From NCBI GenBank assembly GCA_042571125.1, contig JBHPFU010000001.1:193225-257224 (forward strand): a stretch of DNA of 64,000 nt. Direction: 5' to 3'. The stretch's first letter is position 1, and each line of letters begins with the position of its first letter. The notes below the pieces were generated by a model. It ran no database searches. It saw nothing but the letters and a program-made list of their open reading frames with translations, and was not told where the DNA came from. The translations under genes and the position numbers were made by a program. This DNA comes from Nanobdellota archaeon. Its GTDB lineage: Archaea; Nanobdellota; Nanobdellia; Woesearchaeales; UBA10107. Shown here piece by piece: positions 25,578-45,222 of this stretch.

Positions 25578-25578
25578 A

Positions 25579-28500
25579 ATGAAAGAGATGAAAGAAGCAA
25601 TAGCATTGTTTTGTATACTTCTAGTTCTAACTTTGCCTGTTGGCGTGGCTGATGCGTTATCTATATCTAATATTGACCTAGAAGTTTCTGATAGGTACGC
25701 AATTGTGAACTGGGAGACAGACGAAGCTTCAAATAGCCTTGTTCATTACGATGTAACTAATGTTACTCTTGCTCTTCAAGGACAAGATTCTGTTCTGAAA
25801 ACAAATCATAGCTTAATGTTGACTAATTTAATTGCAGATACTAAATACTATTATTCTGTTGAATCCTCAAATCCGAATGGAACAGTGGTTGATAATAATT
25901 CTGGAGCATACCATGAATTTATGACAGATTTAGTAGATACAACTCCTCCGTTTATTATCGCAGATATCCCTGAATATAATGCTGGGGCTTTGATTGATAT
26001 AGAAGTCTCTACAGAACCGGACAGCATAATATTCCTGTATGTTAATAATAACTTGACAAGATTCTATAATGGTTCATCTTTTACTTTCCCTTCTGTTAGA
26101 TTAGAATCAGGACTTAACACAATCAAAATAATCACAAGAGATCCTTCTTTTAATGAAAACGAAGAATCATTTAATGTTTTTGCAGATACTGCTCCGCCAG
26201 ATGTTACATACAGTCCTGCGATTAAGAAAGCATACACAACATTATCCGTTACATTCAGCGGTTCTGTTACAGATAATTCTGGACAGCCAGTATCAATGTG
26301 GTTTTATATTGATGGAAGTACAAAACCAAACGCAACAATAGCAAACCTAAGCTCGCCTTGGTCTACAACATTAGATTTTAAAACAGAAGGGTACCATGAT
26401 CTTAAGATTGTTGCAAAAGATGTTGCAGGTGTTGAATATAGTAATGATTTACAAGATATCTGGTTCGATACAACTCCTTTAAGATTTAATAATACAAATT
26501 TAAACGAACTTTCCCCTGCTTACACATTATTCCAGACAATAAGAGGTAATGTTAACAAACCTCATGCGAAAATAATAGCAAAAGTAAATAATGAAACAAC
26601 TTCTGGTACTTTTACAACAAGTTTACAAGATTTAATTAGAAGTTTAGCAGCAGGAGAAATGTCATTTGATACAGAAGCAGATGAAAACGGAGATTTCTCT
26701 TTAGAGATAAGACTTTCCCAAGAACCTAAGTATCAAGTAAGATCTGCAGAAGATGTTCCAGCAGAAGCTTCATCTTCATTAAGCTATATTGACTTTACTA
26801 CAGGAAGATTCTGGATGAATGATGTAGAACTTATCGTAATTGATGAGCATGATTTATGGAATTCAACAGAAGAAGAGTGGGTTGCATACACAAAATGTGG
26901 TTCAGGAGGTCAGTGGAGAATTGATGGTCCAAACGCTCCAACTCCGCCATCATTACCCGAACCAATATTTAGAGAAGGTTTTGCTCAATTCCATCAAGAA
27001 TTTAAATTGAAGTGGAACGGAGGAACACCAAGACAGGATGTTGATGTACATCATGTTGAAGTAAACCCAAGAGTTGAACTTACCAGACAAACAGGTGAAA
27101 GATTAGATTTAGAACGTGAATTATTTGAAGGTGTTAAGTTATTTCCTTCAGCACCACCGTATGGAGAAAGTTTCTACTTGACTTATGACTTGGCTCCATT
27201 GACAGAAAAATTAGAAGGAGACTACAAATGGTATGATATCCAAGAATTAAGTTTCCCTGTGCAATTAGAAGTTGAGTATAGTTATGAAAAAGCAGGAGGA
27301 AGACCTTCTGGAACATTAACACAGATTGAATGCTGGGAGGTAAACATACAGATTGAAAGAACAATTCCTCCTGATCACATACCTGAAAACTTTTTGAAAG
27401 GAATGGTTAAATTCTTTAACGGATCTATTAATTTGATTGATAAGATATTAAAACCATTAAAAACAATAAAAACCTATGCATACATTTCCTGTTTTGCAAC
27501 ATGGCCTGTTTATTTTGTTATGTGGGTTCGTGCAAGATTCTCTTGCTTTGGAATAGGTTCAGACAAAGTTGAAGAGTATTGTGCAATGGATGCAGATGGG
27601 GAGATGAGCGTTGAAGGAGATAATCCTCCGACAGGCATGCAAACATGTTGTAATGCTGTTGGCAGTCAATTGAATAAACAAAAATGGATGAACCTGTTCT
27701 GTGACAGGGTTTTCTGTCCAAGCGTACCTTCCTTAAGCCACCATGTTGATACATATTCTGATGCGATTACAAGAAGAGGTTCTTCTGAATGTAACGGCTG
27801 GCAAGGATTAGACAAGGGTTCTGATCAATATGAAAAATGTAAAAGAGAATTCAATAGAGCATGGGGAGATGTTTTCATAATAGATTATCCATTTGAAGAT
27901 GAATTCCAGGCAGCAAGAGTTGCAGCAGGACTTGAAACAGGAAGAACAGGAATATTTGCAAGCATATTCAAGAATGTTGGAGGATTTGCGACTAATGTTT
28001 GTTCAAGAAGACATGTTGGAGAAGAACAGATCTATTATCCTGAAGGAACAAAAGCAACCGATAAAGAAGTTAGAGGAAACCAGACAGTTAACAATGCATT
28101 TAGAATAAATCCTGATGGAAGCGTTAATGTAGGAAATGTTAAAATTATCCGTGTTTACAGAGGAGGGAAGTGGCAGGAAGACACAACTCAGTTTACTGCT
28201 ACAGGAAACATACTCGTAGTAACACCAGAAGGATGTTGCGGTACAAGTTGTAGCAAACCAGATGGAACTGCAGAGTATACTAGATGCAGTAAAGCAGTAA
28301 CTGGTTTCGGTACTCCTCCTAAAGCAGATGTAGTAAGACTTCCAAACTATGTACAGAATGCAAGAGGGGTAAAAGCAACAGATAAATACATATTAAATCC
28401 AACAAGAGGACCAATCGCTGCTACAAAAGCAGGATGTATACCTGCGGTTTATTCTTACTTAACTGTATGGAGAGGATTGATGGATGTAGGAAGAACATGC

Positions 28501-30465
28501 TTCCAGTCAATACTTAAGACCGGTGAAGGAGATTCAGGAGTTTGCCAGACATTTATAGGGCAGGTAGCTTGTGATCTTATTATTGATGTACTAAGTTGTG
28601 CTAAGAATATAATCAACAAAGGAGGAGTTGGTATTTCTGGTGAAAAAGCAAGAACAGCTAATCCTTTAACTAAATTCTTTAGTGCTGTAGCCTCTGGAGG
28701 AGATGAGATTGAACGTACTATCAGCGGAAGGTACGGAGAAACAAATGTTTTCAGAACAGCATTCACAGAACGAAAACTAATTCACTCTGTCTGTCTAGCT
28801 GCATTTACAGGAGACTGGGATATGGACATCATGGCAGACATATTAGGTGAAGCATTTGAAATGCCAGTAGACAGTATTGGTTCTGTTTTCCCTGCTGACA
28901 GAAGATTCATGGGTTCAAATCCATTAGACTTTGGAAGAACAAATTATATTTATCACGCAGGAGTATTGCTATCTGCAGGAGCAGACTTAAATTACGAAGT
29001 TCAATTGGTGTGCAGTAAATCAAATGACTGTGCGAGATATAGTGAAGAAAGTAATCCTGGTGGAAGATGTGATTGCTTCTACAAAGAAGATGAAAGAACA
29101 TTCACTGTTAAGTCTGGTTCATTAGAACAAGGAGAGATGTTGAATGAAGATATTTACGAAACAATTGAAGGTTCTGACTTTAGGTATGATCATGCAAGAT
29201 TAATCTGGAGATACACAGATTCTAATGATGAAACTGTTCCAGGTAAAAAAGAAACTTTCCTAAGCCAGAGAGGAATTGAACCTCCTGCAAAATGTGAGCT
29301 TGATATAGACACAGGTAATTTCAGATGTTCATTTGATGTTGCAGACCAAGGTGTTGCATACTTTGTTGACGGACCAAGACCTGCAAATCCTGATACAGTT
29401 TATTCAACAGGTAATCCTCTAAATCTGGAAACAAAAATTGAAGTAATAAGTCCAGAAGGAAGACAACTAACCAAATTCATAGGATTTATAGTAAGGAATC
29501 AAAACAAGAGAATTGTATACCCTAATTCAAGAGACGGGGGAGTATTCCAATTAGATGAAGGAGAAAAAACATACAGTTTCCCTGGAAGTGTAATGACTCT
29601 GCGTGAAGATGATTTCGGATCTGCAGATATAGAAAGAGTTGCAGCTAGAACAAGCCAAATACAAGTAAAAGATAACCTAGGTTATGTTGTGGCAACAAAT
29701 CCCACCTCTAACTTTGCGGTTGTGTTTATTGATACTTCAGGAAAATACGCGTGCGTAGATACAACTATAATTAATGATGGAATACAATTATTGGGGGGTT
29801 TACCAACAACTTCAACAACAACCTATACTCCTGGAACCGCAGTAAGATGTAAAGGATTGAGTTTTACGATTATGACCGCGCATGCCGATATAAAGATAAC
29901 AGAACTTAAAGCAAATCAAATTTATGATAAAGGAAGTCTAATCGAATTTAGACCCCCTACAACAACAAGCGTAGGACAATGTTCACCAGAGCAAGTCCAA
30001 TGGAATGTAACTGCCACACTTTATTATGGTACAAGAGATGGAAATACAAATACATGGTCTTCAACAGGAACTCCTGTCAGACATCAAGGAAGAAAACAGG
30101 AAAAGAGTGTTTTAATTCCTGCTAAATGTGTTCATCAACCTAGCGAAACCGATAAGCCAGCGATTACTGGTTTCAAAGTAACTCCTGACGAAATAAAGTT
30201 AGATACTGAAAGAGTAGATTTCGAAGCAACAGTAATTGATGCTAGTAGAATGCAAGAAGTAATCTTACTTGTAAATGGAGAAAGAACAAAGCAAGCAGCT
30301 AAAGGAGATAATAATCTTTGGTCTGGATCAATAAGTATCGCTGACTATGTAGGCATCCTTAAATCAGGAAATAATGAGTTCAATATCACTGCTAGGGACA
30401 GCCAAGGAAATGTAAGGTCAGTTACAACTTCGAGTCCAGTTACATACGTCACATCAACACAGTAA
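25579..30465 (+). CDS. Giant (1628 aa) secreted Cys-rich protein: signal peptide, FN3-like domain, Ig-like modules, Cys-rich core; cassette B
   Basis: Signal peptide MKEMKEAIALFCILLVLTLPVGVADA. The FN3-like segment is AIVNWETDEASNSLVHYD...HSLMLTNLIADTKYYYSVESSNPNG. Module boundaries are VDTTPPF, ADTAPPDV, FDTTPLRF. The central region has many Cys pairs (CCNAVG, CDRVFC, CCGTSC, GCIPAVYSYLTVWR). Confidence 0.65.
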   Translation: MKEMKEAIALFCILLVLTLPVGVADALSISNIDLEVSDRYAIVNWETDEASNSLVHYDVTNVTLALQGQDSVLKTNHSLMLTNLIADTKYYYSVESSNPNGTVVDNNSGAYHEFMTDLVDTTPPFIIADIPEYNAGALIDIEVSTEPDSIIFLYVNNNLTRFYNGSSFTFPSVRLESGLNTIKIITRDPSFNENEESFNVFADTAPPDVTYSPAIKKAYTTLSVTFSGSVTDNSGQPVSMWFYIDGSTKPNATIANLSSPWSTTLDFKTEGYHDLKIVAKDVAGVEYSNDLQDIWFDTTPLRFNNTNLNELSPAYTLFQTIRGNVNKPHAKIIAKVNNETTSGTFTTSLQDLIRSLAAGEMSFDTEADENGDFSLEIRLSQEPKYQVRSAEDVPAEASSSLSYIDFTTGRFWMNDVELIVIDEHDLWNSTEEEWVAYTKCGSGGQWRIDGPNAPTPPSLPEPIFREGFAQFHQEFKLKWNGGTPRQDVDVHHVEVNPRVELTRQTGERLDLERELFEGVKLFPSAPPYGESFYLTYDLAPLTEKLEGDYKWYDIQELSFPVQLEVEYSYEKAGGRPSGTLTQIECWEVNIQIERTIPPDHIPENFLKGMVKFFNGSINLIDKILKPLKTIKTYAYISCFATWPVYFVMWVRARFSCFGIGSDKVEEYCAMDADGEMSVEGDNPPTGMQTCCNAVGSQLNKQKWMNLFCDRVFCPSVPSLSHHVDTYSDAITRRGSSECNGWQGLDKGSDQYEKCKREFNRAWGDVFIIDYPFEDEFQAARVAAGLETGRTGIFASIFKNVGGFATNVCSRRHVGEEQIYYPEGTKATDKEVRGNQTVNNAFRINPDGSVNVGNVKIIRVYRGGKWQEDTTQFTATGNILVVTPEGCCGTSCSKPDGTAEYTRCSKAVTGFGTPPKADVVRLPNYVQNARGVKATDKYILNPTRGPIAATKAGCIPAVYSYLTVWRGLMDVGRTCFQSILKTGEGDSGVCQTFIGQVACDLIIDVLSCAKNIINKGGVGISGEKARTANPLTKFFSAVASGGDEIERTISGRYGETNVFRTAFTERKLIHSVCLAAFTGDWDMDIMADILGEAFEMPVDSIGSVFPADRRFMGSNPLDFGRTNYIYHAGVLLSAGADLNYEVQLVCSKSNDCARYSEESNPGGRCDCFYKEDERTFTVKSGSLEQGEMLNEDIYETIEGSDFRYDHARLIWRYTDSNDETVPGKKETFLSQRGIEPPAKCELDIDTGNFRCSFDVADQGVAYFVDGPRPANPDTVYSTGNPLNLETKIEVISPEGRQLTKFIGFIVRNQNKRIVYPNSRDGGVFQLDEGEKTYSFPGSVMTLREDDFGSADIERVAARTSQIQVKDNLGYVVATNPTSNFAVVFIDTSGKYACVDTTIINDGIQLLGGLPTTSTTTYTPGTAVRCKGLSFTIMTAHADIKITELKANQIYDKGSLIEFRPPTTTSVGQCSPEQVQWNVTATLYYGTRDGNTNTWSSTGTPVRHQGRKQEKSVLIPAKCVHQPSETDKPAITGFKVTPDEIKLDTERVDFEATVIDASRMQEVILLVNGERTKQAAKGDNNLWSGSISIADYVGILKSGNNEFNITARDSQGNVRSVTTSSPVTYVTSTQ

Positions 30466-33706: not shown

Positions 33707-34381
33707 TTAAGCAGCTCTTAGTCTCTCTTCAAGGTTTTCAGCTTCTTCTGGTTTACCTTGTGACTTTAGAGTTGACTTGTACTTATCTTGTATTCCTCGC
33801 GCGTAGTTTTCACCAGTCTTTGTGTGTTCTTTTGCTTCATCTTCTGCCCTTCTTTCTGCGACAGTACTCATGTAGCTTGCTAATGAAACAACAACTTCTT
33901 CTGGTTTCTTTTTCTTAAGCGCTGGAATCTCTTTTTGTAATTCTCTTGCAACATCCATCTTGTCGTCAATGCTTAATTGTTCAATTTCGTTTTGCTTAAT
34001 TCCAACTACGTTTTGAATGTATTTTTGCTTATGGATTGTTTTGATCATTTCATATACTGCATCAATGTCTGGTCTTTCTGTGTTAAGTGCAGCTATAATT
34101 TTTGCATAGTTGCTCCTTCCTTGTTCATCTGTGCCTACTTGCATTGCAAGTAATCCTAGAATCTCTTCATCTTTTTCATACATGCTAGTGTCGTGACCAA
34201 CTGTTTGATAGAATGCTCTTGCTACTTTTGCTGCAGCTTGCTGTGGTGATTTTGCTTTTAATGCTGGGGTTAGGTCTGCTCCTTTCTTATCAAAAGGTGA
34301 TTGTATGTCAGCCTTTCCAGTAGCGTACTTAATTACCTCTTCATAGGTTTTTTGCCCTTTTGTTTTTTCGTCTTTTGCCAT
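33707..34381 (-). CDS. Hypothetical soluble protein (224 aa), Lys/Glu/Ala-rich
   Basis: ORF with no signal peptide. A consensus BRE/TATA lies 82-96 nt upstream, so the leader is unusually long. Its stop is only 2 nt from the convergent stop of 32874-33704. Confidence 0.65.
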   Translation of the reverse strand: MAKDEKTKGQKTYEEVIKYATGKADIQSPFDKKGADLTPALKAKSPQQAAAKVARAFYQTVGHDTSMYEKDEEILGLLAMQVGTDEQGRSNYAKIIAALNTERPDIDAVYEMIKTIHKQKYIQNVVGIKQNEIEQLSIDDKMDVARELQKEIPALKKKKPEEVVVSLASYMSTVAERRAEDEAKEHTKTGENYARGIQDKYKSTLKSQGKPEEAENLEERLRAA

Positions 34382-34462
34382 TTTATTTTACCACCCTTCT
34401 TTTGTTTTAAACTTTTTGGTGAGTTTTTCGTCACCACTTAGTAATTAATATATCTTAAGTAG

Positions 34463-34477
34463 TATATAAACCTTTCG
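34463..34477 (-). promoter_or_regulatory. BRE/TATA promoter (CGAAAGGTTTATATA on the minus strand) for 33707-34381
   Basis: Exact copy of the 15-mer at 50114-50128. The TATA lies about 85 nt from the ATG at 34381, which implies a 5' leader of about 60 nt. That leader contains the inverted repeat TGGTGA-N8-TCACCA (34417-34436) and a GGGTGG SD-like element. Confidence 0.5.
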
Positions 34478-34568: not shown

Positions 34569-36767
34569 TTAACAAGATTTTGTTTCTATGTATGTTGTTG
34601 TTCCGCAGGCAGTATCTGTGCATGTTCTTCCCTGTTTGTCAATCAAAATACCATTCATGAAAACAGGACACTCGCTTGGTCCCCATGTGCTACATTCAAT
34701 TTTTGGTTCACAAATTTGACTAGGACATTCTTTTGTTTCTGTATACTCTTCTGTGCATCCATTTAGGTCTCTACAAGTTCTTCCCTGTTTGTCAATCAAA
34801 ATACCATTCATGAAAACAGGGCAAGTTTCAGGACCCCAGTTATCGCAGACAATATTTGGTTCACAAACTTGTTCAGGACATTCTTTTGTTTCTGTGTAAT
34901 CTGAAATACATTCGTTTAGATCCTTGCATGTTCTTGCTTGATTTGTTATTGGAATTCCATTTTGGAATGTGTTGCACGTAGGTCCCCAGTTCTCACAAAC
35001 AATATCTGATTGACATTGTTGTTCAGGACAATCTCGCATTTCATCATATGATTCAGATCCAGTACATTCGTTCTGATCAGAGCAAGTTCTTTTTTGTTTA
35101 TTTGTTGGTACTCCATTTACAAATCCCGGACAAGTTCCAGGGAACCAATCATCACAAGTATAATCTGGAACGCAAAGGTCTCCATTATTCCCAATTCTCA
35201 GTGTAAAGCTTGATTTTGTTTTCAAATCATTTGATTCTACGTATTCAACATAAAGATCCTGCACACCATTTTGATTTGGAGCATTAAATGTTAATGATCT
35301 TGTTGCGATTTGCCCTGGATTTAGTGAAATTGATGTTGAACGCAGTACTGTTCCATCACTTTTGGTGATTCTTAAGTTTCCAGATGAAGAAGTTCCTATA
35401 TTTTCTAATAAAATATCAATTAAAACTTCATTTCCAGGATTAGTTTGATCATCATATGTTAATTCTTGAATCATAACGTTTGAATAAGGGATATAATCTA
35501 TTGCATACCTTACTTTCCCATAAACTCTTAGCAAACCATTCTGGCAATCAAGTATTTCGATTGGATTTACCTTAACTAAAACTGCTTCTTGATCTTCTGT
35601 AAATGAATGAGCGTATTCAATACCCGGGTTTGTTGTGCTATTACACCCTCTTGCGATAAATGAATTGTTCCATTCAGGAATATTTGCAGTTATATCTGCA
35701 TAATTATCTAAACCAACTAAAGAAACATTTGTGATGACTGTTTTTAGCGGGAATCTTGATGCTTTTATTGTTGTTGGAAGAACTAAGTCTCTAAATCCGA
35801 ATTCCTGTACAGTATTCTGAGATGTTACCAGATTAAATCCGTCTTGTGTTGTTATGTAATATGTGTCCTCAAATTCATAATATTTTTTGTATGGTCTTGG
35901 TTCTGCAGGTACAGTTATCAGAGCCATTGGTTGTGCCGACATTGAAGAAGTTGTAGAGACTGGAGTTGCATCATAGTTCTTTAAGAAATCTTCACAGAAA
36001 TCATCAATGTCTGCTTTACTATAGTAAGGAACATCAACATTTAATGTAGGAACTCCGTATAATGTGTAAGATAGTAATGCTAATCCTACAAATTCATCAT
36101 CTCTAAATATATTATCAACATCCATGTGAGCCCAGTAATAATTATTTCTGGCTCTTTTGAATGCTTCGCCCACTGTTGAAGACCTTCCTACGTTACAAAT
36201 AAAGCTTTTTACAAACTCTCTGCTTGGATATGCAGTAGGAGCGATAATAACAGAATCTTGTCCTATTTCTTTAATGAATGAATCTAGGTTTTTTGGCAAG
36301 TATAGGCCACTATAGTGAGAATCGAATACAACTAATGGATTTTTAGTTTGGAATGTTGAGACCCAAGAGCTTGCTGTTGAAGGCGATAATCCTCCTGCTT
36401 TTATTGTATTACCAACAACCTCTCCTTCTTCCTCAACTATTAAAAATTCATTTGTTTGGAAATTGTTTAAACTATTTGTTACATCATTCAAATTCCATGA
36501 GAATTTATCAATGTATTTTGAACTTCCAAATTCTTCATTCAACACATCAACTTTATCATCTGAAAATAAGTTAAACACGTCACCATCTCCGAAATAAGTT
36601 GCGTGCTGAAGATCAATGTTTGAAGATTGAAGCTGATTAATTAATTCTTGCGGAGTATCTCCTACAAGTCTTCCAACAGCTGCAGTTTCGTAGCTTGTTG
36701 TTAGAGCAAAAGCTGGAACTGCAAGTATCAAAATCATGCAAATTCCGATTAGGAAGTTTTTATTCAT
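34569..36767 (-). CDS. Secreted 732-aa protein: signal peptide, gingipain/C25-like fold (catalytic residues not evident), CARDB-like domain, four C-terminal Cys/Trp repeats
   Basis: Signal peptide MNKNFLIGICMILILAVPAFA. PLVVFDSHYSG...SVIIAPTAYPS...STVGEAFKRARNNYYW resembles the clan CD/C25 strand-His and strand-Cys regions, but with Tyr and Pro-Thr at the expected Gly and Cys positions. PGNEVLIDILLENIGTSSSGNLRI...LNPGQIATRSLTFNAP is CARDB-like. The repeats are listed as a separate feature. Confidence 0.55.
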   Translation of the reverse strand: MNKNFLIGICMILILAVPAFALTTSYETAAVGRLVGDTPQELINQLQSSNIDLQHATYFGDGDVFNLFSDDKVDVLNEEFGSSKYIDKFSWNLNDVTNSLNNFQTNEFLIVEEEGEVVGNTIKAGGLSPSTASSWVSTFQTKNPLVVFDSHYSGLYLPKNLDSFIKEIGQDSVIIAPTAYPSREFVKSFICNVGRSSTVGEAFKRARNNYYWAHMDVDNIFRDDEFVGLALLSYTLYGVPTLNVDVPYYSKADIDDFCEDFLKNYDATPVSTTSSMSAQPMALITVPAEPRPYKKYYEFEDTYYITTQDGFNLVTSQNTVQEFGFRDLVLPTTIKASRFPLKTVITNVSLVGLDNYADITANIPEWNNSFIARGCNSTTNPGIEYAHSFTEDQEAVLVKVNPIEILDCQNGLLRVYGKVRYAIDYIPYSNVMIQELTYDDQTNPGNEVLIDILLENIGTSSSGNLRITKSDGTVLRSTSISLNPGQIATRSLTFNAPNQNGVQDLYVEYVESNDLKTKSSFTLRIGNNGDLCVPDYTCDDWFPGTCPGFVNGVPTNKQKRTCSDQNECTGSESYDEMRDCPEQQCQSDIVCENWGPTCNTFQNGIPITNQARTCKDLNECISDYTETKECPEQVCEPNIVCDNWGPETCPVFMNGILIDKQGRTCRDLNGCTEEYTETKECPSQICEPKIECSTWGPSECPVFMNGILIDKQGRTCTDTACGTTTYIETKSC
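34572..35174 (-). repeat. Four tandem coding repeats (47-53 aa, about 150 nt each) of a Cys/Trp-rich module at the C-terminus of the 732-aa protein
   Basis: Protein repeats follow C-x-(P/S)-x-I-x-C-x-x-W-G-P-x-x-C-P-V-F-M-N-G-I-L-I-D-K-Q-G-R-T-C-x-D-x-x-x-C-x3-Y-x-E-T-K-(E/S)-C. The two distal copies share a near-identical DNA stretch (gttcttccctgtttgtcaatcaaaataccattcatgaaaacagg at 34624-34667 and 34777-34820, 153 nt apart). Confidence 0.85.
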
Positions 36768-36990
36768 CTTGTATGAATTCTACTTCTTCAAAATCTCCTA
36801 TTTTATTACATTTAGGACAAGTTATCCATTCTAATTTAGGATAGATAAACTCTTTATTGCCACATTTTTTACATTTTAAGTCTTCACCAAGTTTGTAATA
36901 GTCAAAATGATGACACTTTTTACACATGTATGTACGTCCTCCTACAATCTTGAGTTCGTTCTTACATCCGTTACATTTTATTCTTAACAT
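36760..36990 (-). CDS. Small zinc-ribbon protein (76 aa, four CxxC pairs)
   Basis: CNGCKN..CKKCHH..CKKCGN..CPKCNK. It starts 9 nt after the stop of the 1389-aa gene and overlaps the start of the 732-aa gene by 8 nt, so translational coupling is likely. Confidence 0.65.
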   Translation of the reverse strand: MLRIKCNGCKNELKIVGGRTYMCKKCHHFDYYKLGEDLKCKKCGNKEFIYPKLEWITCPKCNKIGDFEEVEFIQDE

Positions 36991-36999
36991 TTTTTTGAA

Positions 37000-39900
37000 T
37001 CACCCTTTTATTTTTTTAACCTCGTTTAATACAGTTAATAATGCATCATCATAATTTTGTGAAGTTAATGTGCCTGCCTTTTGCAACATTATATTTTTTA
37101 ATGCAATTATCTCGCTTTTTAATCCCGGAGCAGTATTATCTATTAACGATAAGATCATATTGTTTTTAGCACTGAATCCAAATTTTTCTGTTTCCGCAAG
37201 ACTTTTTGCTATAAAATCTACTTCACTATGCCCTGCAGAAACACGGCGAATAATTTCTCCATCAAAAATTTCGTCGTATACGTGTTTTCCTATATTATCT
37301 CTATATTTTGCAGCTTCGCTAGGATCCATGATATGATACATTCTTGCATTTGCATCAAATTCAAAGAAATTTTTTAGATATTTCTCGCTATCTAATTTTT
37401 GAATATTTAATCTAGTCATTCTAGCTATGAATCTCTCGCTGAACACAATTCCGTCTTCAAGTGCATGAGCGTGTTCATGAATTATTGTGAAATCTTTTAA
37501 TCTGTCTCTTGCTACATCTATGTGTTTTACATTTAGTATTATCTCTTGCTTAGCGGGGATGTATACTCCATACATGAGTTTATCCGCTGTTTCATCTAGT
37601 TCTCCGAAACTTATTTTTACGTTTTTAAATTCTTCTTCAAAACCTTTTCTGGAAATGTCTATGTTTTTGATAACAGTGTCTTCTCCAAAATATTCATAGA
37701 CTTTTTTAGGATTAAGGCCCCCATAAACATTATTATCAAATATCCTGTACCTTTTTGTTATCCTTAGTTCTTCAACATTGCCTGCACCTTTTAATGCATC
37801 TGCCGAAAAATCAAAATTCAAATTTTTCACAGCACTAAACGAACTTTCAGCAACTTCAGGACCATGTTTTAGAATATGTATCCCTCCTTCTACCATCTGT
37901 GCAAGCAGTTTAGGAGATCTTGCTACTAATTTAACTAACCCCCCGATTAATTTAGGAGCTGCAACTATTGTTTCAACAGCTTCTTTCACAACTTTTCTTC
38001 CTAGTGTTGTGACAATATTTGGTAAGAAGTTCTTTAATCCAACTTTCAGCATGGCAATGCTACCATCAAATACCTCCCCTCCAAATCCTGCGGCACCCGC
38101 TGTAATAAACGCAGCACCCCATGTTGCAAGATCATATGCTGTAGCAAAATCAACAACCTTGCAGATGAAGAAGTCTGCAACGCCCGCGTCTGTATCTGTA
38201 TCACCCACACCCCAAGACCACATACATTTCCAGGAATCTCTTAAGTCTGGCGCAAGTTCAACTAAAGGAATCATATTACAAGTTATTTCAGCACTTACCG
38301 GATGCGGCGCCCCTTCAAATTTACCATCCCAAAGACAAGCAACAACAGCATCACCAAATGTCCAGTCTGCTTGAGGACCGTCTTCAACAATCTTTTTTAA
38401 AGCAAGGATATTATCGTAAATATCTTCATCTGAATTTAGAACAATAGAATAATCAAGATCGCTCCAAACATTTCTCTCTAAACTCATAGAACTTATTTCA
38501 TCAGAAACAAAAGGAAGACAAGCCATAGCATTATTGGTTTTTTCTGTTCCAATCAAGATTAATGTCTTGTCTTCAAGATCGTTAAATGAATTACATCCAA
38601 CATCAGACTCATCTATCATTTCAACTGTTCCATACTTACTTTCAATGGTATTTTTTAGATCATTAACTGCATCTTGCATTTCCCCAGATAATGAAGGAAT
38701 AACCATCGCAACATCTTTTCCAACGAATAAGTCTCTTAACTCAGAAAATGGTTTCTTTGTTCTAGGAATGTATGGCAAATCAGAGTAAATAGACTCTGTT
38801 GCACTATATTTCTCCCACCACAAGAAATTTGTTCCGTGATACTGTTCAATATTTCTTCTATAATGCGGAACAACAAAATCATCTCCAATTATTAAGACAT
38901 CATTGCATGTTTCATGACATTTATTTCTTATTATTTCTGAAGATTTAATTACATAATCATTATCGGTTTGAGGCGCGATTGGAGTTTCAGAATAACTTGA
39001 GAAGCTAGACCAAGGTCGTCCAACAATGTAATCATCTATGAAGTATACAACACCATTTTCAGATTCTGCAAGAATAAAAGCTTCCTCTAAAACATCTTTT
39101 ACATTATGGTCATAATTGTAACGTTCATATAATCCAACTCTATCTGTTACTAATATTAATGCAGGATTATCAATAACTTGAACATATTCATTTCTGTTAT
39201 CAATCTCAAATTTATAAGACATTCTCGCAGCATTTTCAGGAATAATGAATTGAATTATGTTTAATCCTGACTGTACGCTTGCTTGATCATTCGAAACTTG
39301 TCCTTTTACAATAGGCCAGCTAGAAGGACGATCTAAGTGAACTGTTCCGCTGCCCGAAGCAGTAATAACAACATTTACATAATCTCCTGGCTGTTTGTAA
39401 ACAATGGTTCCAGCAGGAGCATCTTCTAATGAAACTGAGAAAGTATTTGAAACAGGAATTGAGTTACATTGACCTTGACTATTACAAACTTCATTCGAAT
39501 TACAGTCTGAATTTGAATAACATTCATAATTTAATGAATTACAGCTTGATTGTCCGATAATACATTCTTCTCCGAATCCGCAGTATGCAGATTCTGTCCA
39601 ATCAGTATATGTTGACGCTCCTGCACAAGTATTTGTTGTTCCAGAACAACGCTGTTCTCTTGTTCTTGTTTCAACATTCCCTTGCAAAGTACATCCATAT
39701 TGCGCTTGAGTATCGCAGACTACAGAACTATCTGCGAATATTCCATTATCGCAACAAGCACCGGAAGTACATTCAACTACACATGAACCTGCAGAACAAA
39801 TGCCAGTTCCACAAGTTTCTACAAGTTGTTCTTCTGTGTATGGATTTTCATAACATCCTCCACTTGAACAACCTCTTGTGTAACAAGTTCTACTTTGGTA

Positions 39901-41169
39901 TTTTGCTCCATTTTTACAGTAGGTTGGTCCCCACGCATCACAACTATCAATTCCACAGTCTTGTTGCACTATGGGGGCGGTGGAAGATGTACAACCAGAA
40001 CCGCTACATCCTTTTGTTTCATAATTTCTATAAACATCGTCACCAGAACAATAATTGCTTCCAACATATTCGCTTGTTCCGCAATTTGTTTTTACTTCTT
40101 CTCTGTTTCCGCAGGAATCATACCAATAGACATGTCCGCTAGAACAAGAATAACTAGTATGAGAATAACATGGAGTTTCGCAACTATTGCCATCCCATTC
40201 TTTTCCATAAGGACAACAGTAATCAGTTGTTCCAAGCCAAGCAACATCACAATAATGGCCAGAAGCGCATTCATCTCCTCCAATTATATCGCAGTCCCCC
40301 TCTCCTTCTGTACAAGCACATCCTGCATCTAATGCTTTGTCACAATAATCTCCATCACCTTCTTGACTTACTATATCATATTGTGTACTTGAAGATTCTC
40401 CGCATGAAGACGGAGAACAGTATTCAGTATAAACGGTACGTTTTCTTTTGATATTATCGCCAGAACAATAATTAGAGCTCCAACTTGTTGTACTAACATC
40501 ATCGCACGTTTCAAGAGTTTTCCATGTAGTATCACAATCTGAATACTGATATTTTCTTTGTCTAGAATCTCCGCTGCATCTGTATTCATTTAAGTATCCT
40601 GAATCACATGTCTCATAGCAATCATCTCCATCATATTCTTCGCCAGAATAACAACAACCTTCTATTGTCCCCGGACCACCAACGCATTCGTATTTGCTTG
40701 AACATTCGGAATCCCAATCACAATCTCCTGCTTCGTATCCACATATAAAATCTGTCTCTGCCTTAAGAACTTTACAGAAATCAGAGTCACCTTCTTCACT
40801 TTCTAATTCCCAGCAAAGCAGTTTTCCAAATACAATCATGTCATTACATTGCCATAATCTTAGACCGCCATCTGTATAGCCCCATTGACCTTCTATACTG
40901 CAAGAACCTAATGTATTTGAATAATCGCTACATGATTCGGTTATCCCCATAGTAGTTGCTGAAGAAAGCCCGTATGGAGCATTAATCATTGTAGTATAAG
41001 TGCTAGAACCAGAAGAAATATCCCCAACAAAAGTTCCATCAAGTTCGGTTTGTTCTTCTATTGTTTTAGATCTTATTTCAGGTCCTTCAATCGGAAGAGA
41101 AAAAGCTTGTGGCATAATTGACAATATAAACATTAAACAAATCATTATTGTTAATGTTTTTTCATGCAT
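37000..41169 (-). CDS. Giant (1389 aa) secreted Cys-rich protein with a Gly/Ala-rich hydrophobic segment and a C-terminal HExxH (putative zinc metallopeptidase-like) domain
   Basis: Signal peptide MHEKTLTIMICLMFILSIMPQAFS. Residues about 80-570 (nt about 39465-40930) are dense in Cys, with repeated modules (YCSGDNIKRKRTVYTEYCSPSSC, YCSGDDVYRNYETKGCSGSGC, CDAWGPTYCKNGAKYQSRTCYTRGC). The hydrophobic segment is DLATWGAAFITAGAAGFGGEVF (nt about 38065-38140). HEHAH lies at nt 37465-37479 within DFTIIHEHAHALEDG. Confidence 0.65.
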   Translation of the reverse strand: MHEKTLTIMICLMFILSIMPQAFSLPIEGPEIRSKTIEEQTELDGTFVGDISSGSSTYTTMINAPYGLSSATTMGITESCSDYSNTLGSCSIEGQWGYTDGGLRLWQCNDMIVFGKLLCWELESEEGDSDFCKVLKAETDFICGYEAGDCDWDSECSSKYECVGGPGTIEGCCYSGEEYDGDDCYETCDSGYLNEYRCSGDSRQRKYQYSDCDTTWKTLETCDDVSTTSWSSNYCSGDNIKRKRTVYTEYCSPSSCGESSSTQYDIVSQEGDGDYCDKALDAGCACTEGEGDCDIIGGDECASGHYCDVAWLGTTDYCCPYGKEWDGNSCETPCYSHTSYSCSSGHVYWYDSCGNREEVKTNCGTSEYVGSNYCSGDDVYRNYETKGCSGSGCTSSTAPIVQQDCGIDSCDAWGPTYCKNGAKYQSRTCYTRGCSSGGCYENPYTEEQLVETCGTGICSAGSCVVECTSGACCDNGIFADSSVVCDTQAQYGCTLQGNVETRTREQRCSGTTNTCAGASTYTDWTESAYCGFGEECIIGQSSCNSLNYECYSNSDCNSNEVCNSQGQCNSIPVSNTFSVSLEDAPAGTIVYKQPGDYVNVVITASGSGTVHLDRPSSWPIVKGQVSNDQASVQSGLNIIQFIIPENAARMSYKFEIDNRNEYVQVIDNPALILVTDRVGLYERYNYDHNVKDVLEEAFILAESENGVVYFIDDYIVGRPWSSFSSYSETPIAPQTDNDYVIKSSEIIRNKCHETCNDVLIIGDDFVVPHYRRNIEQYHGTNFLWWEKYSATESIYSDLPYIPRTKKPFSELRDLFVGKDVAMVIPSLSGEMQDAVNDLKNTIESKYGTVEMIDESDVGCNSFNDLEDKTLILIGTEKTNNAMACLPFVSDEISSMSLERNVWSDLDYSIVLNSDEDIYDNILALKKIVEDGPQADWTFGDAVVACLWDGKFEGAPHPVSAEITCNMIPLVELAPDLRDSWKCMWSWGVGDTDTDAGVADFFICKVVDFATAYDLATWGAAFITAGAAGFGGEVFDGSIAMLKVGLKNFLPNIVTTLGRKVVKEAVETIVAAPKLIGGLVKLVARSPKLLAQMVEGGIHILKHGPEVAESSFSAVKNLNFDFSADALKGAGNVEELRITKRYRIFDNNVYGGLNPKKVYEYFGEDTVIKNIDISRKGFEEEFKNVKISFGELDETADKLMYGVYIPAKQEIILNVKHIDVARDRLKDFTIIHEHAHALEDGIVFSERFIARMTRLNIQKLDSEKYLKNFFEFDANARMYHIMDPSEAAKYRDNIGKHVYDEIFDGEIIRRVSAGHSEVDFIAKSLAETEKFGFSAKNNMILSLIDNTAPGLKSEIIALKNIMLQKAGTLTSQNYDDALLTVLNEVKKIKG

Positions 41170-41176
41170 TTTTTGT

Positions 41177-42745
41177 CTACTTCACCCCCAATAAAGGACT
41201 TGTTGCAATGTTTGCTCCAAGATAAACTCTTGTTTCATTGTCCTTAGGAATCTCAATAGTTCCTTTTGATCTCCTCCTTTCATGTTCAATACCAAGATCT
41301 ATCTTAAGGAAGTTCATGATCCTTGCAAATAGATTCACATCATAGATAATTCTTTGATCTCTGTAGTCTTCGTAAATATCTGTAAAGAATTTTTCATTTG
41401 ATCCTGTCTGTTCAATCTTTTTTCTAATAAAATTCATATTTAGTTCTAATCCAATCTCATCAAATGAACCTTTTTCTAATCTTTTAGCTGCTCCGAGATA
41501 TGTTGATACCATATGCAGAAAAGCATCTCTATCTCTTCTATACTTAACATCTCCTGGAAAAGTTTTATCTTCATGTTCTGAATCAAATATCTCTTTGCCC
41601 ATTAAGCCATCATATTCTAGCTGTACTTTGAATATCCAGGTGTTATCATATCGTGCGAATATTCTTGCTAAGATCCCTTTAGCGTGCAATTGTCTATCTG
41701 TTTCAATTTTGTATTCATACTTTCCTACTGTTTGTTTATACTCTCGTCCTTCTTGATCAAGTAGATATACAAAACCAAGCCCTCCACCAAGACTTCTTTT
41801 ATGGTTACCAAGTTCGAGCAAAACTTTTGAAAGATTATTTATTTCTTCTTTCTTGCCTTCTTCTGTTCCACCTGAGCTTAATAAAGATTCAAAATCATTA
41901 GTGAAAGTTCCATTTTGAATTCGTAGAATATCTTCTAAAGCTAAACCAAGCATAAATGCGCCAGTATAACCTCCTGCCGCGATTCTTCCTCTCCCTACAA
42001 AATTGTCAAGATCAAGTTCTTCTAAATTATCTATTACCATTGTTGGAGAAGTATCTTTAATGCTTCTTGTTCTTTGAGAAGAAGGAGAGTATCTTGCTCC
42101 TGCTAAGAATTCAAAATATGAATTTGGAAGGGAGGGAGGTAGATTTTTCCTTAATTCGTTACGCTTAAAAACATCTTCTAATTTTACAAGAGTATCTGCA
42201 TTTTTAACAGGCGATAAATCTATTGGACCAACATCTTCTTTCAATTCGGAACATTTGTACCATTTACCATCCGAACTTCTAACGTAGTTTTTCCTAGAAT
42301 CATCTCCGTCAAACTGAGCTTTAATTTTTATTCCTGTATCAAATACTTTGCCATCTTCTATGATTCTATCTCTAAGAAACTGAGTTTTTGGCGGAACATA
42401 AGGAACAGTTGTAGCAGTAGGAGTTTGTGTTACTGTTGCGGTTGGCTGAGGCGTTGGAGTTTGTGTTACCGTATTTGTTGGGATTGGTGTGTTTGTAGGT
42501 TGAGGCGTATGAGTTAGAGTAGGATCTTCATCAATTTCAATAAATTCAACATCTTCTATCTCTTCAATTTCATCAATATCTTCAGCATCGCTCTCAAGTT
42601 CAGGGATAACTTCTCCTTCGGATTCATCAAGAAGAACAATTCCATCATCTTGAGCAATGGCATTAGTAACAATATTAGAACTTCCAAGGGCTAAAATTCC
42701 TGCAAGCGAACTCACTAAACACTTTTTTACATACATTTGGTACAT
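41177..42745 (-). CDS. Secreted protein (about 520 aa): signal peptide, acidic stretch, Thr/Pro/Gln-rich linker, Cys-poor beta-rich C-terminal domain
   Basis: The track start at 42775 is a GTG inside a GC-rich leader. In-frame ATGs at 42745 (MYQMYVKK) and 42736 (MYVKKCLVSSLAGILALGSSNIVTNAIA) give a canonical signal peptide. The linker is THTPQPTNTPIPTNTVTQTPTPQPTATVTQTPTATT. It is the first gene of the four-gene minus-strand operon (7-nt spacer to the next gene). Confidence 0.6.
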   Translation of the reverse strand: MYQMYVKKCLVSSLAGILALGSSNIVTNAIAQDDGIVLLDESEGEVIPELESDAEDIDEIEEIEDVEFIEIDEDPTLTHTPQPTNTPIPTNTVTQTPTPQPTATVTQTPTATTVPYVPPKTQFLRDRIIEDGKVFDTGIKIKAQFDGDDSRKNYVRSSDGKWYKCSELKEDVGPIDLSPVKNADTLVKLEDVFKRNELRKNLPPSLPNSYFEFLAGARYSPSSQRTRSIKDTSPTMVIDNLEELDLDNFVGRGRIAAGGYTGAFMLGLALEDILRIQNGTFTNDFESLLSSGGTEEGKKEEINNLSKVLLELGNHKRSLGGGLGFVYLLDQEGREYKQTVGKYEYKIETDRQLHAKGILARIFARYDNTWIFKVQLEYDGLMGKEIFDSEHEDKTFPGDVKYRRDRDAFLHMVSTYLGAAKRLEKGSFDEIGLELNMNFIRKKIEQTGSNEKFFTDIYEDYRDQRIIYDVNLFARIMNFLKIDLGIEHERRRSKGTIEIPKDNETRVYLGANIATSPLLGVK

Positions 42746-42963
42746 CCCCCGTCGGTCGCGCAGTGCAGAGCGCACTCTTTTATACCTCTTTTTCTGTCAA
42801 CCACTAGTGTTATAAGTTAAGATATCGCTTTTAATAACTGTTTTCGTCTAAGTTTCGTATCTATTTCGGTTATTAATGTCGAAAACCGTTTATTCTAGAT
42901 TAGTGGTGAATGAAATATATAAACTTTGTGCAGTTCCTTTATAAATGAACTAGAAATCACATT

Positions 42964-43698
42964 TTAGGCATTATTGGCCTTATTCCACAAAATTTCAAAT
43001 TGTTTTCTGTAACCTTCAGCAACTGCTTTGTCTTTTATTAGAATTCCATAAGGATTTTCTGTAAAAATAGCTATTCCTACATAATCTCCTATGATTATTG
43101 TTTCCTGCAACTGTGCGTATTCTTTTGGTAGGAATTTAATTTTAGTTAATCGTCTTTTATTCAGTTCATTCCCAAATTTTCTTATTGTTTCATCAAAAAC
43201 CTGTCTGCAAGGTATCTTTTTAGCAATTCTTTTAGTATGCAGGCCTTTCCACCAAGTTTCTCCCATAACGTCATAAGTTACTGCTGAACCTCCTCCAAAC
43301 GTGTTGTATTCTTTTCCTTTAGAATTAAGCAAGGTTATGTACATCTGATTTATTCCTCTCTTCCCTTTGAAAATCTCTCCAAAAGTTATTTTTTTAGAAA
43401 TCTTTTGTTTATTCTTTAACTCAGGTAAAATTTGATCAAATCTTTTTCTTTTATTTTCGATAAAATCGTGAAAATTCTCAGGGTTTGTTGCTTGATAGAT
43501 TTTCTTTTTACCTTCAAGAATAAAGCTGATCAGTCCTTTTTCAATTAGAGTGTTTAATGCTCTATGCACTACAGAGTTTTGCAAACCTGATTTTTCAAGA
43601 ATATTTCCTGCTGAACTGCTACCTAATTCAAGCAGAGATACATATACTTTAATCTCTGCATGTGTAAGTCCAAGATCTTCTAATATTGATATATCCAT
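42964..43698 (-). CDS. trmB: TrmB-family transcriptional regulator
   Basis: N-terminal winged helix MDISILEDLGLTHAEIKVYVSLLELGSSSAGNILEKSGLQNSVVHRALNTLIEKGLI is a typical TrmB signature. The size (244 aa) and C-terminal effector-like domain fit the family. Confidence 0.8.
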   Translation of the reverse strand: MDISILEDLGLTHAEIKVYVSLLELGSSSAGNILEKSGLQNSVVHRALNTLIEKGLISFILEGKKKIYQATNPENFHDFIENKRKRFDQILPELKNKQKISKKITFGEIFKGKRGINQMYITLLNSKGKEYNTFGGGSAVTYDVMGETWWKGLHTKRIAKKIPCRQVFDETIRKFGNELNKRRLTKIKFLPKEYAQLQETIIIGDYVGIAIFTENPYGILIKDKAVAEGYRKQFEILWNKANNA

Positions 43699-43816: not shown

Positions 43817-44581
43817 ATGATGAAAAACATAATAAAAGAATTTGTTAAAGGCTCAGGACAATATACTATCTTACCTGAAGGAAAAAGAATAAAGAACGCA
43901 ATAGAAGAAAAATTAGAATCCTATCTCACAAAAGAAATTGGTTTTGAAGAAGTAGAACTGCCAAAGATTGTACCAAGAAGCACGTTAGAAAAAGCAGGAA
44001 TTTTAGATAGATGGAATGATTATCTAATCTCAGTAAAACCTTATGGTGAAACAAAAGGCGTAAAAGACGAATATATTATGGATCCTTTACAATGTTTAGC
44101 TTGCTATCAGGCATTTGAAGATGACACAATTGATGTAAGTAAAGGTCCTCTTAAATGGTATGATTGTTCTGGACCTACTTATAGAAACGAAGAATTAGAT
44201 AAGATCAAACCAGGTGTGAAACAAAGAGAGTTTCATAGAGCAGAATATGTTTACATAGGAACTAAAGAACAAGTAGAAGAAACAAGAGAAAAATGTCTTT
44301 CACAATTAATTAAATTATGCACTGATTTAGGACTAAAAAATAGAGAAGTCACAGGAGATAGCTGTTATCAAGAAGGAGGAAACATAAAAGATGTTGAAGT
44401 TTATATTCCTCATGAAAACAAATGGCTAGAATTAGCAGGAGCAGCGGTATTGCATGAAATAGTTACATCTAAATTCAATATCAAAGGAGAAAATGGAGAA
44501 CAATTACATAGTGGATGTACTGGAATTGGATTAGATAGATTCATGTACGCATTAGTATCAAATGGAGTCGATTTAAAATGA
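43817..44581 (+). CDS. Stand-alone class II aminoacyl-tRNA synthetase-like catalytic core (SerRS-like; no tRNA-binding domain)
   Basis: Motif 2-like CSGPTYRNEELDKIKPGVKQREFHRAEYVYIG and motif 3-like GCTGIGLDRFMYAL. At only 254 aa it lacks the N-terminal coiled coil and any anticodon-binding domain. Confidence 0.6.
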   Translation: MMKNIIKEFVKGSGQYTILPEGKRIKNAIEEKLESYLTKEIGFEEVELPKIVPRSTLEKAGILDRWNDYLISVKPYGETKGVKDEYIMDPLQCLACYQAFEDDTIDVSKGPLKWYDCSGPTYRNEELDKIKPGVKQREFHRAEYVYIGTKEQVEETREKCLSQLIKLCTDLGLKNREVTGDSCYQEGGNIKDVEVYIPHENKWLELAGAAVLHEIVTSKFNIKGENGEQLHSGCTGIGLDRFMYALVSNGVDLK

Positions 44582-45222
44582 AAAACATGACTTATAGATT
44601 TAAAACACCAAAATATCCTAGGAATATATTATATGTAAATCTAATTGCAAACTATGCTTGTACTAATAACTGTAGATTTTGCAGTAGAGAAGATGCAATA
44701 AATAAAAAAAAGAACATCTATGAAAAAAAAGCAAAAACATCATTATACTTGCCAAAATCTCCATCAGTAGATGAGATAGTTGATGCTATTGGCAGGGATA
44801 TAAGAGAAGACGATCAAGAACTTGCAATAATTGGTTTAGGAGAACCTTTAATATATTTTTCAAAAGTTGCCGAAGTAATTAAAAGAGTAAAAGAAAAATA
44901 TAACATTAAGACAAGAATAGATACGAATGGAGTAACTAATAAATCGGCAGAACAATTGCAAGGCTTAGATGAAATAAGAATATCTCTTAATGCTGTAAAT
45001 GAACAAGAATATAATGAATTATGCAGACCAAAAGTTGAAAACGCCTTTCTAAATCTAGTTAATTTTGTTAAAAGCTGTGCAAACTCAACAATTGATACTT
45101 ATGTAAGTTTTGTAGTTGGATTTAAAGGAACAAGAACAAAAGAAGAATATGCACAATACGCGGAATCACTTGGAGTCAAAAAGAAAAATATAATCTTCAG
45201 AAATTATGTTAAGTTAAACTAA
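44578..45222 (+). CDS. Radical SAM protein (214 aa)
   Basis: CX3CX2C cluster motif in NYACTNNCRFC, followed by a GLGEPL glycine-rich SAM-binding motif. The start overlaps the upstream stop (ATGA at 44578-44581). Confidence 0.8.
   Translation: MKNMTYRFKTPKYPRNILYVNLIANYACTNNCRFCSREDAINKKKNIYEKKAKTSLYLPKSPSVDEIVDAIGRDIREDDQELAIIGLGEPLIYFSKVAEVIKRVKEKYNIKTRIDTNGVTNKSAEQLQGLDEIRISLNAVNEQEYNELCRPKVENAFLNLVNFVKSCANSTIDTYVSFVVGFKGTRTKEEYAQYAESLGVKKKNIIFRNYVKLN

Follow-up and report, generated by a model that had tools for sequence, protein, structure and literature searches.

The logic of polymorphic toxin systems is already known and archaeal examples were predicted earlier; contact-dependent polymorphic toxin systems in archaea were reportedly predicted by computation by Makarova et al. 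in 2019. The predicted archaeal systems have DUF4157 Zn-peptidases as a signature, with colicin-D and PD-DExK toxins also mentioned (PMC6393860), and were experimentally uncharacterised as of 2021 (PMC8416519). Bacterial polymorphic toxins of the general secretory (Sec) type combine a signal peptide, a repeat-rich N-terminal part and a conserved pre-toxin region with a variable enzymatic tail (HExxH peptidase, ADP-ribosyltransferase, PD-(D/E)xK-like), and are followed directly by a small co-varying gene, occasionally by tandem partners [Zhang et al. 2012, PMC3482391]; HExxH metallopeptidase tails form an established toxin class among them (Tox-MPTase1-5; PMC3482391). The SPEARE proteins of Nanohaloarchaeota [Hamm et al. 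2019, PMC6642349] are giant DPANN surface proteins with adhesion domains, some with an S8 protease, and with a C-terminal enzymatic domain past a hydrophobic segment, for which a role in cell-cell interaction was proposed. VARTIG (Thermococcales, PMC8416519) is a large secreted archaeal protein with a C-terminal domain that is hypervariable by recombination and with variable downstream genes, and it has been compared with polymorphic toxin systems. We describe here a locus that shares these traits, on a 64,000-nt stretch of DNA (the window; low G+C, ~34%) from a 323-kb contig (JBHPFU010000001.1) of a DPANN metagenome-assembled genome labelled 'Nanoarchaeota archaeon'. Three adjacent minus-strand genes, named g2, g3 and g4, probably form a Sec-dependent polymorphic effector-immunity system of DPANN archaea, as judged from sequence comparison.

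Five features found together suggest a polymorphic toxin-immunity system in the sense of PMC3482391: a signal for export, a carrier rich in repeats, a junction that is conserved, enzymatic tails that are exchanged and include a recognised toxin domain, and a co-varying partner that is not exported; on these features, g2 is read as the carrier-effector, g3 as the immunity protein or inhibitor, and g4 as a secreted accessory protein. The sequence-only reading, made earlier from the window and its open reading frames (ORFs), had placed the genes correctly and missed this architecture, namely the variable tail past a conserved junction and the small gene that co-varies with it.

Together with an upstream gene, g1, the three genes form a series of four (locus tags ACFLZ7_01235 to 01250) on the minus strand: g1, encoding a secreted orphan protein (41177-42775); g2, a giant secreted effector-carrying protein of 1389 aa (37000-41169; NCBI ACFLZ7_01245); g3, a 76-aa cytoplasmic double zinc-ribbon protein (36760-36990); and g4, a conserved secreted partner of 732 aa (34569-36767). 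The close packing read earlier holds, with spacers of 7 and 9 nt at g1/g2 and g2/g3 and an overlap of 8 nt between g3 and g4, and so do the secreted nature of the large products, g1, g2 and g4 having N-terminal signal-like hydrophobic segments that g3 lacks, and the absence of a curated-family hit for g1-g4 (Pfam, NCBIfam, PADLOC, PDB). Searches of Pfam, NCBIfam and PADLOC with whole proteins and segments, and PDB sequence and profile searches, gave nothing significant for g1, g2 and g4. The label 'Cys-rich', applied to the whole operon, fits g2 (67 Cys) and g4 (29 Cys) and does not fit g1 (2 Cys).

The giant is a homology mosaic, in that no relative found by word-indexed search covers more than 30% of g2. 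Its signal-like segment (aa 1-28) is followed by Cys-rich repeats common to many DPANN surface proteins (aa 76-550, 39520-40944, minus strand as for all g1-g4 features; mapped by blastp), among them one Cys/Trp module located by regular expression (aa 410-429, 39883-39942). The conserved middle region (aa 556-935, 38365-39504) consists of a beta-sandwich followed by an alpha/beta domain, has no PDB or Pfam match, and is the family hallmark of the giants, with the motifs 'IIGDDFVVPHYRR' and 'LILIGTE.NNA..C'. Related loci are labelled L001-L020 below and related proteins P with a number (P0003 is the giant of L013, P0002 that of L010); the middle region is 28-42% identical to the giants of L002, L003, L007-L009, L015, L018 and L019. 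It is followed by a Cys-free helical 'pre-toxin' module (aa 940-1120, 37810-38352; alignment A3) with the motif ACLWDGKF...CNMIPLVELAPDLRDS, in which CNMIPLVEL occupies aa 964-972 (38254-38280); across relatives the near-invariant form is ACLWDGKF...CNxIPxVELxPDxRDS, followed by a Gly-rich amphipathic helix. The junction motif ILKHGPEVA (aa 1099-1107, 37849-37875; family form [IL]LxHGxE[VI]A-like) lies shortly before the variable, zincin-like C-terminal tail (aa 1125-1389, 37003-37797; alignment A4), which carries the C-terminal HExxH already pointed out in the 1389-aa protein, as HEHAH at aa 1231-1235 (37465-37479). In tails of this type HEHxH, an E-x-D 35-37 aa downstream and an LAExE..GF motif are all invariant.

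An AlphaFold2 (AF2) model of g2 aa 556-1389 (mean predicted local distance difference test score, pLDDT, 79.6) shows in order the beta-sandwich, the alpha/beta domain, a long helical bundle (aa ~940-1175) and an alpha+beta domain, modelled with confidence, in which HExxH sits on a helix; pLDDT exceeds 85 over most of the middle region and 90 in the tail. Fold searches with this segment as one multidomain model (PDB, BFVD) returned generic Ig-like matches and a weak match to the Nir2 C-terminus. For the tail, Pfam gave weak YgjP/SprT zincin hits (E ~0.09), and Foldseek of the model listed no zincin.

Exchange of the tail is seen at a defined place. The word-indexed search returned no matches to g2 aa ~940-1389; searched exhaustively with HMMER, aa 940-1389 gave 24 proteins. 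The HExxH part is present in just three of these (P0040, P0041, P0045), and about 15 match over the first 150-200 aa alone and then diverge. The breakpoint is sharp in comparison with P0042, to which g2 is 50-75% identical as far as aa ~1120 and 17-32% identical beyond. When the last 230 aa of 19 giants were compared, they fell into 11 BLAST clusters; the exchanged C-terminal part measures ~230-450 aa, and tails of the g2 type are found in P0040, P0041, P0045, L014 and L016. One other tail, that of L002, is a Scabin-like/pertussis-S1 ADP-ribosyltransferase (PF22596, 31.9 bits, gathering threshold (GA) 27; PF02917, 21.5 bits, GA 21.3) with recognisable R, S-T-x and E-x-E motifs; PD-(D/E)xK-like motifs occur in several tails and HExxH in many, and the tail of P0003 has a sub-threshold Tox-REase-2 match (E 0.058). 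Composition changes at the same junction: Cys makes up 3-8% of residues in the giants before it, and of the 17 members with the junction motif, 14, g2 among them, have none after it. Such a switch would be expected for a module that works in, or crosses into, a reducing cytoplasm. Signal peptides are present in 9 of the 11 giants with intact N-termini.

The small gene varies with the tail. The four CxxC pairs of g3, on which the earlier description as a 76-aa zinc-ribbon protein was based, are confirmed, and the protein has no hydrophobic segment; hydrophobic or export segments are likewise absent from all small partners (0/21). In all loci the small partner gene adjoins or, more usually, overlaps the giant gene. 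The small downstream proteins form 11 clusters, one of which comprises multi-CxxC zinc ribbons; these stand behind all eight zincin tails of class A4 (g2-type) or A5 and behind none of the 11 other tails. The eight zinc-ribbon loci are the window, L004, L005, L006, L009, L014, L016 and L018; in L004 and L014 the small ORFs are uncalled in the records and were recovered by translation. The remaining partner families are mutually unrelated, save one pair (L012/L017), and the HELGH tail of L015 has a partner other than a zinc ribbon. Between g3 and its L014 orthologue, identity is 54% (E 2e-28), and the matching tails are 58% identical. Tandem partners occur in L015 (7656-9146; paralogues of 249 and 235 aa, 35% identity) and in L018 (3588-4338; zinc ribbons of 146 and 95 aa), an arrangement that resembles immunity-gene arrays. 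From these comparisons, g3 is predicted to be the cognate immunity protein or inhibitor of the g2 zincin tail.

The order of a giant with the g2 middle domain, a small protein and a g4-like protein recurs in 12 DPANN loci (the window, L002, L003, L005, L008, L009, L010, L012, L013, L016, L018 and L019). Junctions in this triad mostly measure -17 to +1 nt, with extremes of +13 and +20, and the flanking genes vary by locus and are mostly housekeeping or unrelated. The pre-toxin core is rare: of 185,579 species-representative genomes 3 contain it, as do 7 metagenome contigs. Triad components of L007 and L009 lie on contigs labelled 'uncultured Methanosarcinales archaeon' (CAZPRK010000020.1, CAYUHB010000014.1); all other named sources are DPANN (Nanoarchaeota/Woesearchaeota), and the label could result from mis-binning or from host-symbiont co-binning. 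In L005 (3137-10037), the giant is split inside the middle domain (stop TAA, then ATG) into an S8 peptidase protein of 1620 aa and a second protein, of 678 aa, with its own signal peptide, pre-toxin module and HExxH tail.

The third gene of the triad is conserved as well. Homologues of g4 follow the small gene in L002, L003, L005, L008, L009, L010, L012, L013, L016, L018 and L019 (E 1e-37 to 8e-99); all 12 g4-like proteins have a signal peptide, followed in each, at a distance of a few residues, by the motif YE[ST]xxV[GS]R[IL]VG (in g4 YETAAVGRLVG, aa 25-37, region 36656-36694), which could be a sorting, anchoring or docking signal. The N-terminal ~525 aa (35193-36767) are conserved in six proteins, and nothing was found for this N-domain in Pfam or by PDB profile search. 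The variable C-terminus (aa 538-732, 34572-35156) consists here of four Cys/Trp repeats of ~50 aa, as described from the sequence before; the sharing of the Cys/Trp module by g2 and g4, also part of that description, is borne out by blastp between the regions (E 4e-4). For the proposed CARDB-like domain (aa 433-514, 35226-35471), a beta-sandwich is predicted in the expected place and the family assignment is borderline (PF07705, 21.8 bits vs a cut-off of 22.7; segment, E 2e-4); clear CARDB domains are present in the L002 giant (E 1.5e-36). The C25-like (clan CD) fold that had been attributed to g4 is withdrawn: the N-domain has no invariant His among 7 homologues (alignment A2; C191 is invariant), the AF2 model is poor (pLDDT 56.5), and Foldseek matches it only to generic beta-sandwiches and to the pro-domain, rather than the catalytic domain, of RgpB. 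Homology of the N-domain to the g2 middle domain, hinted at by blastp (E 0.015), was rejected on the hhalign result (probability 0.07%). In two loci (L017:2476-3607 and L020:2251-4605), the third gene is a hybrid that joins the signal peptide and 'YETAAVGR' start of a g4-like protein to a middle domain like that of g2; these hybrids suggest that domains have been shuffled between the system's two large proteins.

Set beside the described systems, the triad differs from bacterial polymorphic toxins in having no RHS/YD, filamentous-haemagglutinin, LXG/WXG, HINT, PT-TG or other trafficking or pre-toxin domain recognisable by Pfam; in particular, Pfam and NCBIfam searches of g2 and of its segments, at a cut-off as loose as E 10, returned none of the domains for trafficking, pre-toxin function or release (RHS, FHA, LXG, HINT, PT-TG, caspase-like, DUF4157). 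The bacterial systems in turn have no counterpart of the triad's middle domain, of the CNxIPxVEL helical module or of an obligatory g4-like third gene, and the host of the triad is a DPANN archaeon, which has neither a peptidoglycan wall nor an outer membrane. Unlike the predicted archaeal systems, g2, g3 and g4 have no match to DUF4157 or to any other Pfam family. We know of no polymorphic toxin system with an obligatory third gene as a feature; a triad with a conserved secreted third partner is likewise not known to be a feature of the archaeal systems of Makarova et al. (2019). SPEARE proteins are longer (3,000-8,500 aa), and conservation in them is highest in the C-terminal type III restriction-like domain, for which a cytoplasmic location is predicted, whereas the C-terminus is the most variable part of the triad giants; no co-varying small partner or conserved third gene has been described for them, no sequence similarity was detected, and g2 matches no restriction-enzyme family. 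In VARTIG the variable part is an Ig domain, not an enzyme, and lineage, domains and downstream genes differ. Neither Pfam, NCBIfam, PADLOC nor the PDB has a match to any of the conserved parts: the middle domain and the CNxIPxVEL module of the giants, the zincin tail of g2 type, the zinc-ribbon partner taken as an immunity family, and the N-domain of g4.

If the triad is an effector-immunity system, g2 would be exported by Sec and then displayed or released. Its Cys-rich N-terminal part and the variable repeats of g4 may bind the target cell, a competitor or a host archaeon. Release would take place near the conserved junction, and the helical module, Cys-free and with a Gly-rich amphipathic helix, would enter the target together with the tail; there the zincin (HEHAH and a downstream Glu) would cleave a substrate in the cytoplasm or close to the membrane. 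The cognate zincin would be bound and blocked by g3 within the producer and its kin. The N-domain of g4 probably docks to the g2 middle domain, which would make g4 an adhesin or anchor subunit. Taken to its full extent, this picture is of a contact-dependent, Sec-exported weapon specific to DPANN archaea, with three components (giant carrier, cytoplasmic immunity protein, secreted docking or adhesin partner) and a tail that is translocated into the competitor or host archaeon; we hold this extended version to be a tentative proposal, somewhat short of an even chance. If true, it would amount to a new pair of zincin toxin and zinc-ribbon immunity protein and a new pre-toxin translocation module.

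Several observations weigh against an effector-immunity system. The association between tail and partner class has a raw Fisher p of 1/C(19,8) = 1.3e-5 in which phylogeny is ignored, and the partners behind the HEAGH tails (P0002/L010, L019) are not zinc ribbons. The three HExxH classes are distantly homologous by hhalign (A5-A6 92%, A4-A6 81%, A4-A5 16%), which points to one fast-evolving gluzincin-like family; much of the 'polymorphism' would accordingly be fast divergence, not swapping of cassettes. Most tails, that of g2 included, have no match to named toxin families, and fold searches were uninformative. In two g2 relatives, P0050 and P0059, Cys-rich repeats resume past the zincin module, so this module need not come last and is internal in these two proteins; in P0059 another hydrophobic segment lies behind it. 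The g2 middle domain shows no conserved His/Cys catalytic dyad, no orphan tail or immunity cassettes were seen downstream (such cassettes being one more point of difference from the bacterial systems), and neither a delivery machinery nor a releasing peptidase was identified.

The main rival explanation follows the topology of SPEARE proteins, described as extracellular S8/adhesion giants that have a transmembrane segment close to the C-terminus and, in the cytoplasm, a nuclease-like domain (PMC6642349). The giant would then be a membrane-anchored surface adhesin whose Gly-rich segment spans the membrane and whose tail lies in the producer's own cytoplasm, where it would act on, or be restrained by, the small partner, in contact-triggered signalling or in a self-directed activity comparable to that of a BlaR1-type sensor-protease. 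Some g2 relatives do have S8 peptidase domains, a Lys/Arg cluster stands right after the hydrophobic segment of g2, and a Cys-free tail with a cytoplasmic small partner suits a cytoplasmic tail equally well. Against this topology stands the weak hydrophobicity of the segment: its free energy (dG) of ~+6.4 in g2, and of +4 to +8 in most members, makes a poor Sec stop-transfer sequence when signal peptides range from -3.8 to +2, and the Gly-rich helix is therefore unlikely to be a membrane anchor, even if a few relatives are more hydrophobic (P0006, dG 1.6; P0059, 2.1). Moreover, P0050 has CARDB/Cys-rich repeats of extracellular type past its zincin module with no transmembrane segment between, a Scabin/pertussis-type ADP-ribosyltransferase is a typical exported toxin, and the sequence does not resemble type III restriction domains; we consider this topology unlikely.

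A surface complex for adhesion and degradation would dispense with toxin-immunity logic altogether: g2 and g4 would attach to or digest the host envelope, with the tail as an extracellular enzyme or self-processing peptidase, and with the small protein as a dedicated chaperone or maturation factor in the cytoplasm. Adhesin-type modules are indeed present in both large proteins (CARDB and Cys-rich; PKD, Big_9 and cadherin-like in relatives), DPANN archaea are episymbionts that need to attach to a host (PMC6642349), zincins are common as extracellular proteases, and the zincin classes are all homologous. Left unexplained are the replacement of the tail by unrelated domains, a toxin-type ADP-ribosyltransferase among them, the distinct and unrelated small protein of each tail class, and a tail free of Cys in an otherwise Cys-rich secreted protein, so that we regard such a complex as rather improbable. 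That the four genes are mere neighbours of unrelated function, packed together by the compactness of the genome, is hardly credible: DPANN genomes are compact, overlaps are common throughout the window and g1 has no relatives, but the order, orientation and overlaps of g2-g3-g4 recur in 12 loci with different flanks, which contradicts this explanation for g2-g4.

DPANN archaea live attached to other cells, and their means of competing with or manipulating hosts are largely obscure. An effector-immunity reading of the triad offers testable candidates, the ~265-aa zincin tail as effector and the 76-aa double zinc ribbon as inhibitor, and the middle domain, the CNxIPxVEL module and the g4-like N-domain provide search signatures for further members. 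If confirmed, the triad would represent a new delivery architecture for polymorphic toxin systems and would give an annotation to dozens of 'hypothetical' giant DPANN proteins.

The four genes of the window are most probably transcribed as one unit from their own promoter, separately from trmB and from a downstream 224-aa ORF (33707-34381), because the gaps are too short for promoters, GGGTG Shine-Dalgarno-like motifs precede the starts of g2 and g3, and the start of g4 overlaps g3. A B recognition element (BRE)/TATA-like promoter element for g1-g4, AAAGTTTATATA (42916-42927, minus strand), lies 152 nt before the GTG of g1; a near-identical one, GAAAGGTTTATATA (34463-34476, minus strand), is found past g4, where it belongs to the 224-aa ORF and appears to mark the downstream end of the unit. 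The one-operon reading made earlier is favoured by these gaps, motifs, overlap and flanking elements, all of them features of the sequence. The motif AAAG(G)TTTATATA has just 8 sites in the 64 kb, all of them intergenic and upstream of genes. Its usual place in the window is 29-37 nt before start codons; the distances of 152 nt for g1 (42776-42927) and of 95 nt for the 224-aa ORF (34382-34476) therefore indicate unusually long 5' leaders for these two genes. Scans of the window with Rfam and for tRNA genes returned no RNA genes.

Upstream of g1 stands trmB (42964-43698, minus strand), encoding a TrmB-family regulator of 244 aa (PF01978, E 6e-15) at a distance of 188 nt from the g1 GTG, as read before; it has a TATA-like element of its own ('GAAAGGTTTAAATA', 38 nt upstream of the ATG). 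The candidate operator repeats proposed for the 188-nt spacer did not withstand analysis, there being no direct repeats and the best inverted repeat being matched in 40 of 300 shuffles, the level of chance. Elsewhere, a full-length TrmB homologue adjoins the triad in L010, where it is divergently oriented (26% identity over 255 aa, E 4e-14); no TrmB stands beside the triad in the other loci (L001-L020 checked, L010 excepted). TrmB is a neighbour that is loosely linked to the system, and may regulate it in a sub-clade.

The product of g1 is 532 aa long from the GTG, which has a GAGGT Shine-Dalgarno-like motif 8 nt upstream, and 519 aa long from the ATG at 42736 used by NCBI; it consists of a signal-like segment, an acidic region, a Thr/Pro linker and a C-terminal domain, in line with the earlier account of a secreted protein of about 520 aa with such a linker. 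Its sole match among 5.8e9 proteins is g1 itself, and it has no Pfam, NCBIfam or PDB match. The gene stands outside the conserved g2-g3-g4 triad and may encode a lineage-specific accessory protein.

The window also contains a duplicated plus-strand cassette (13912-19057 and 23727-30465) whose first products, of 716 and 616 aa, are paralogues (26% identity, E 4e-36) that begin like class-III pilins ('KKAQVTVFIILG' / 'KRGQITLFIILG'); the gene behind each encodes a Cys-rich giant, 1000 aa long with 27 Cys in one copy and 1628 aa long with 33 Cys in the other. The sequence-only reading had joined TrmB, the four genes and these cassettes into one functional unit, a contiguous exoproteome island of ~31 kb, and had itself tied the island to co-occurrence of operon and cassettes in other genomes. 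No cassette protein was found in the related loci L001-L009, with flanks of up to 10 kb, nor were g1 and TrmB (L010-L020 were checked for g1 and TrmB alone); the cassettes show no relation to g1-g4 and were never near the triad in the other genomes checked, and the island is therefore abandoned. What recurs jointly, in the 12 loci, is just g2-g3-g4.

On the other side of trmB, divergent from it, a plus-strand pair (43817-45222) encodes a 254-aa truncated protein with a class-II aminoacyl-tRNA synthetase core and, with a 4-nt overlap, a 214-aa radical S-adenosylmethionine (SAM) protein. The former resembles methanogen-type SerRS (E 1e-33, far below the cut-off) and also amino acid--[acyl carrier protein (ACP)] ligase, the latter the TIGR04100 / TatD-linked radical SAM families; the two may be a small modification or biosynthesis pair.

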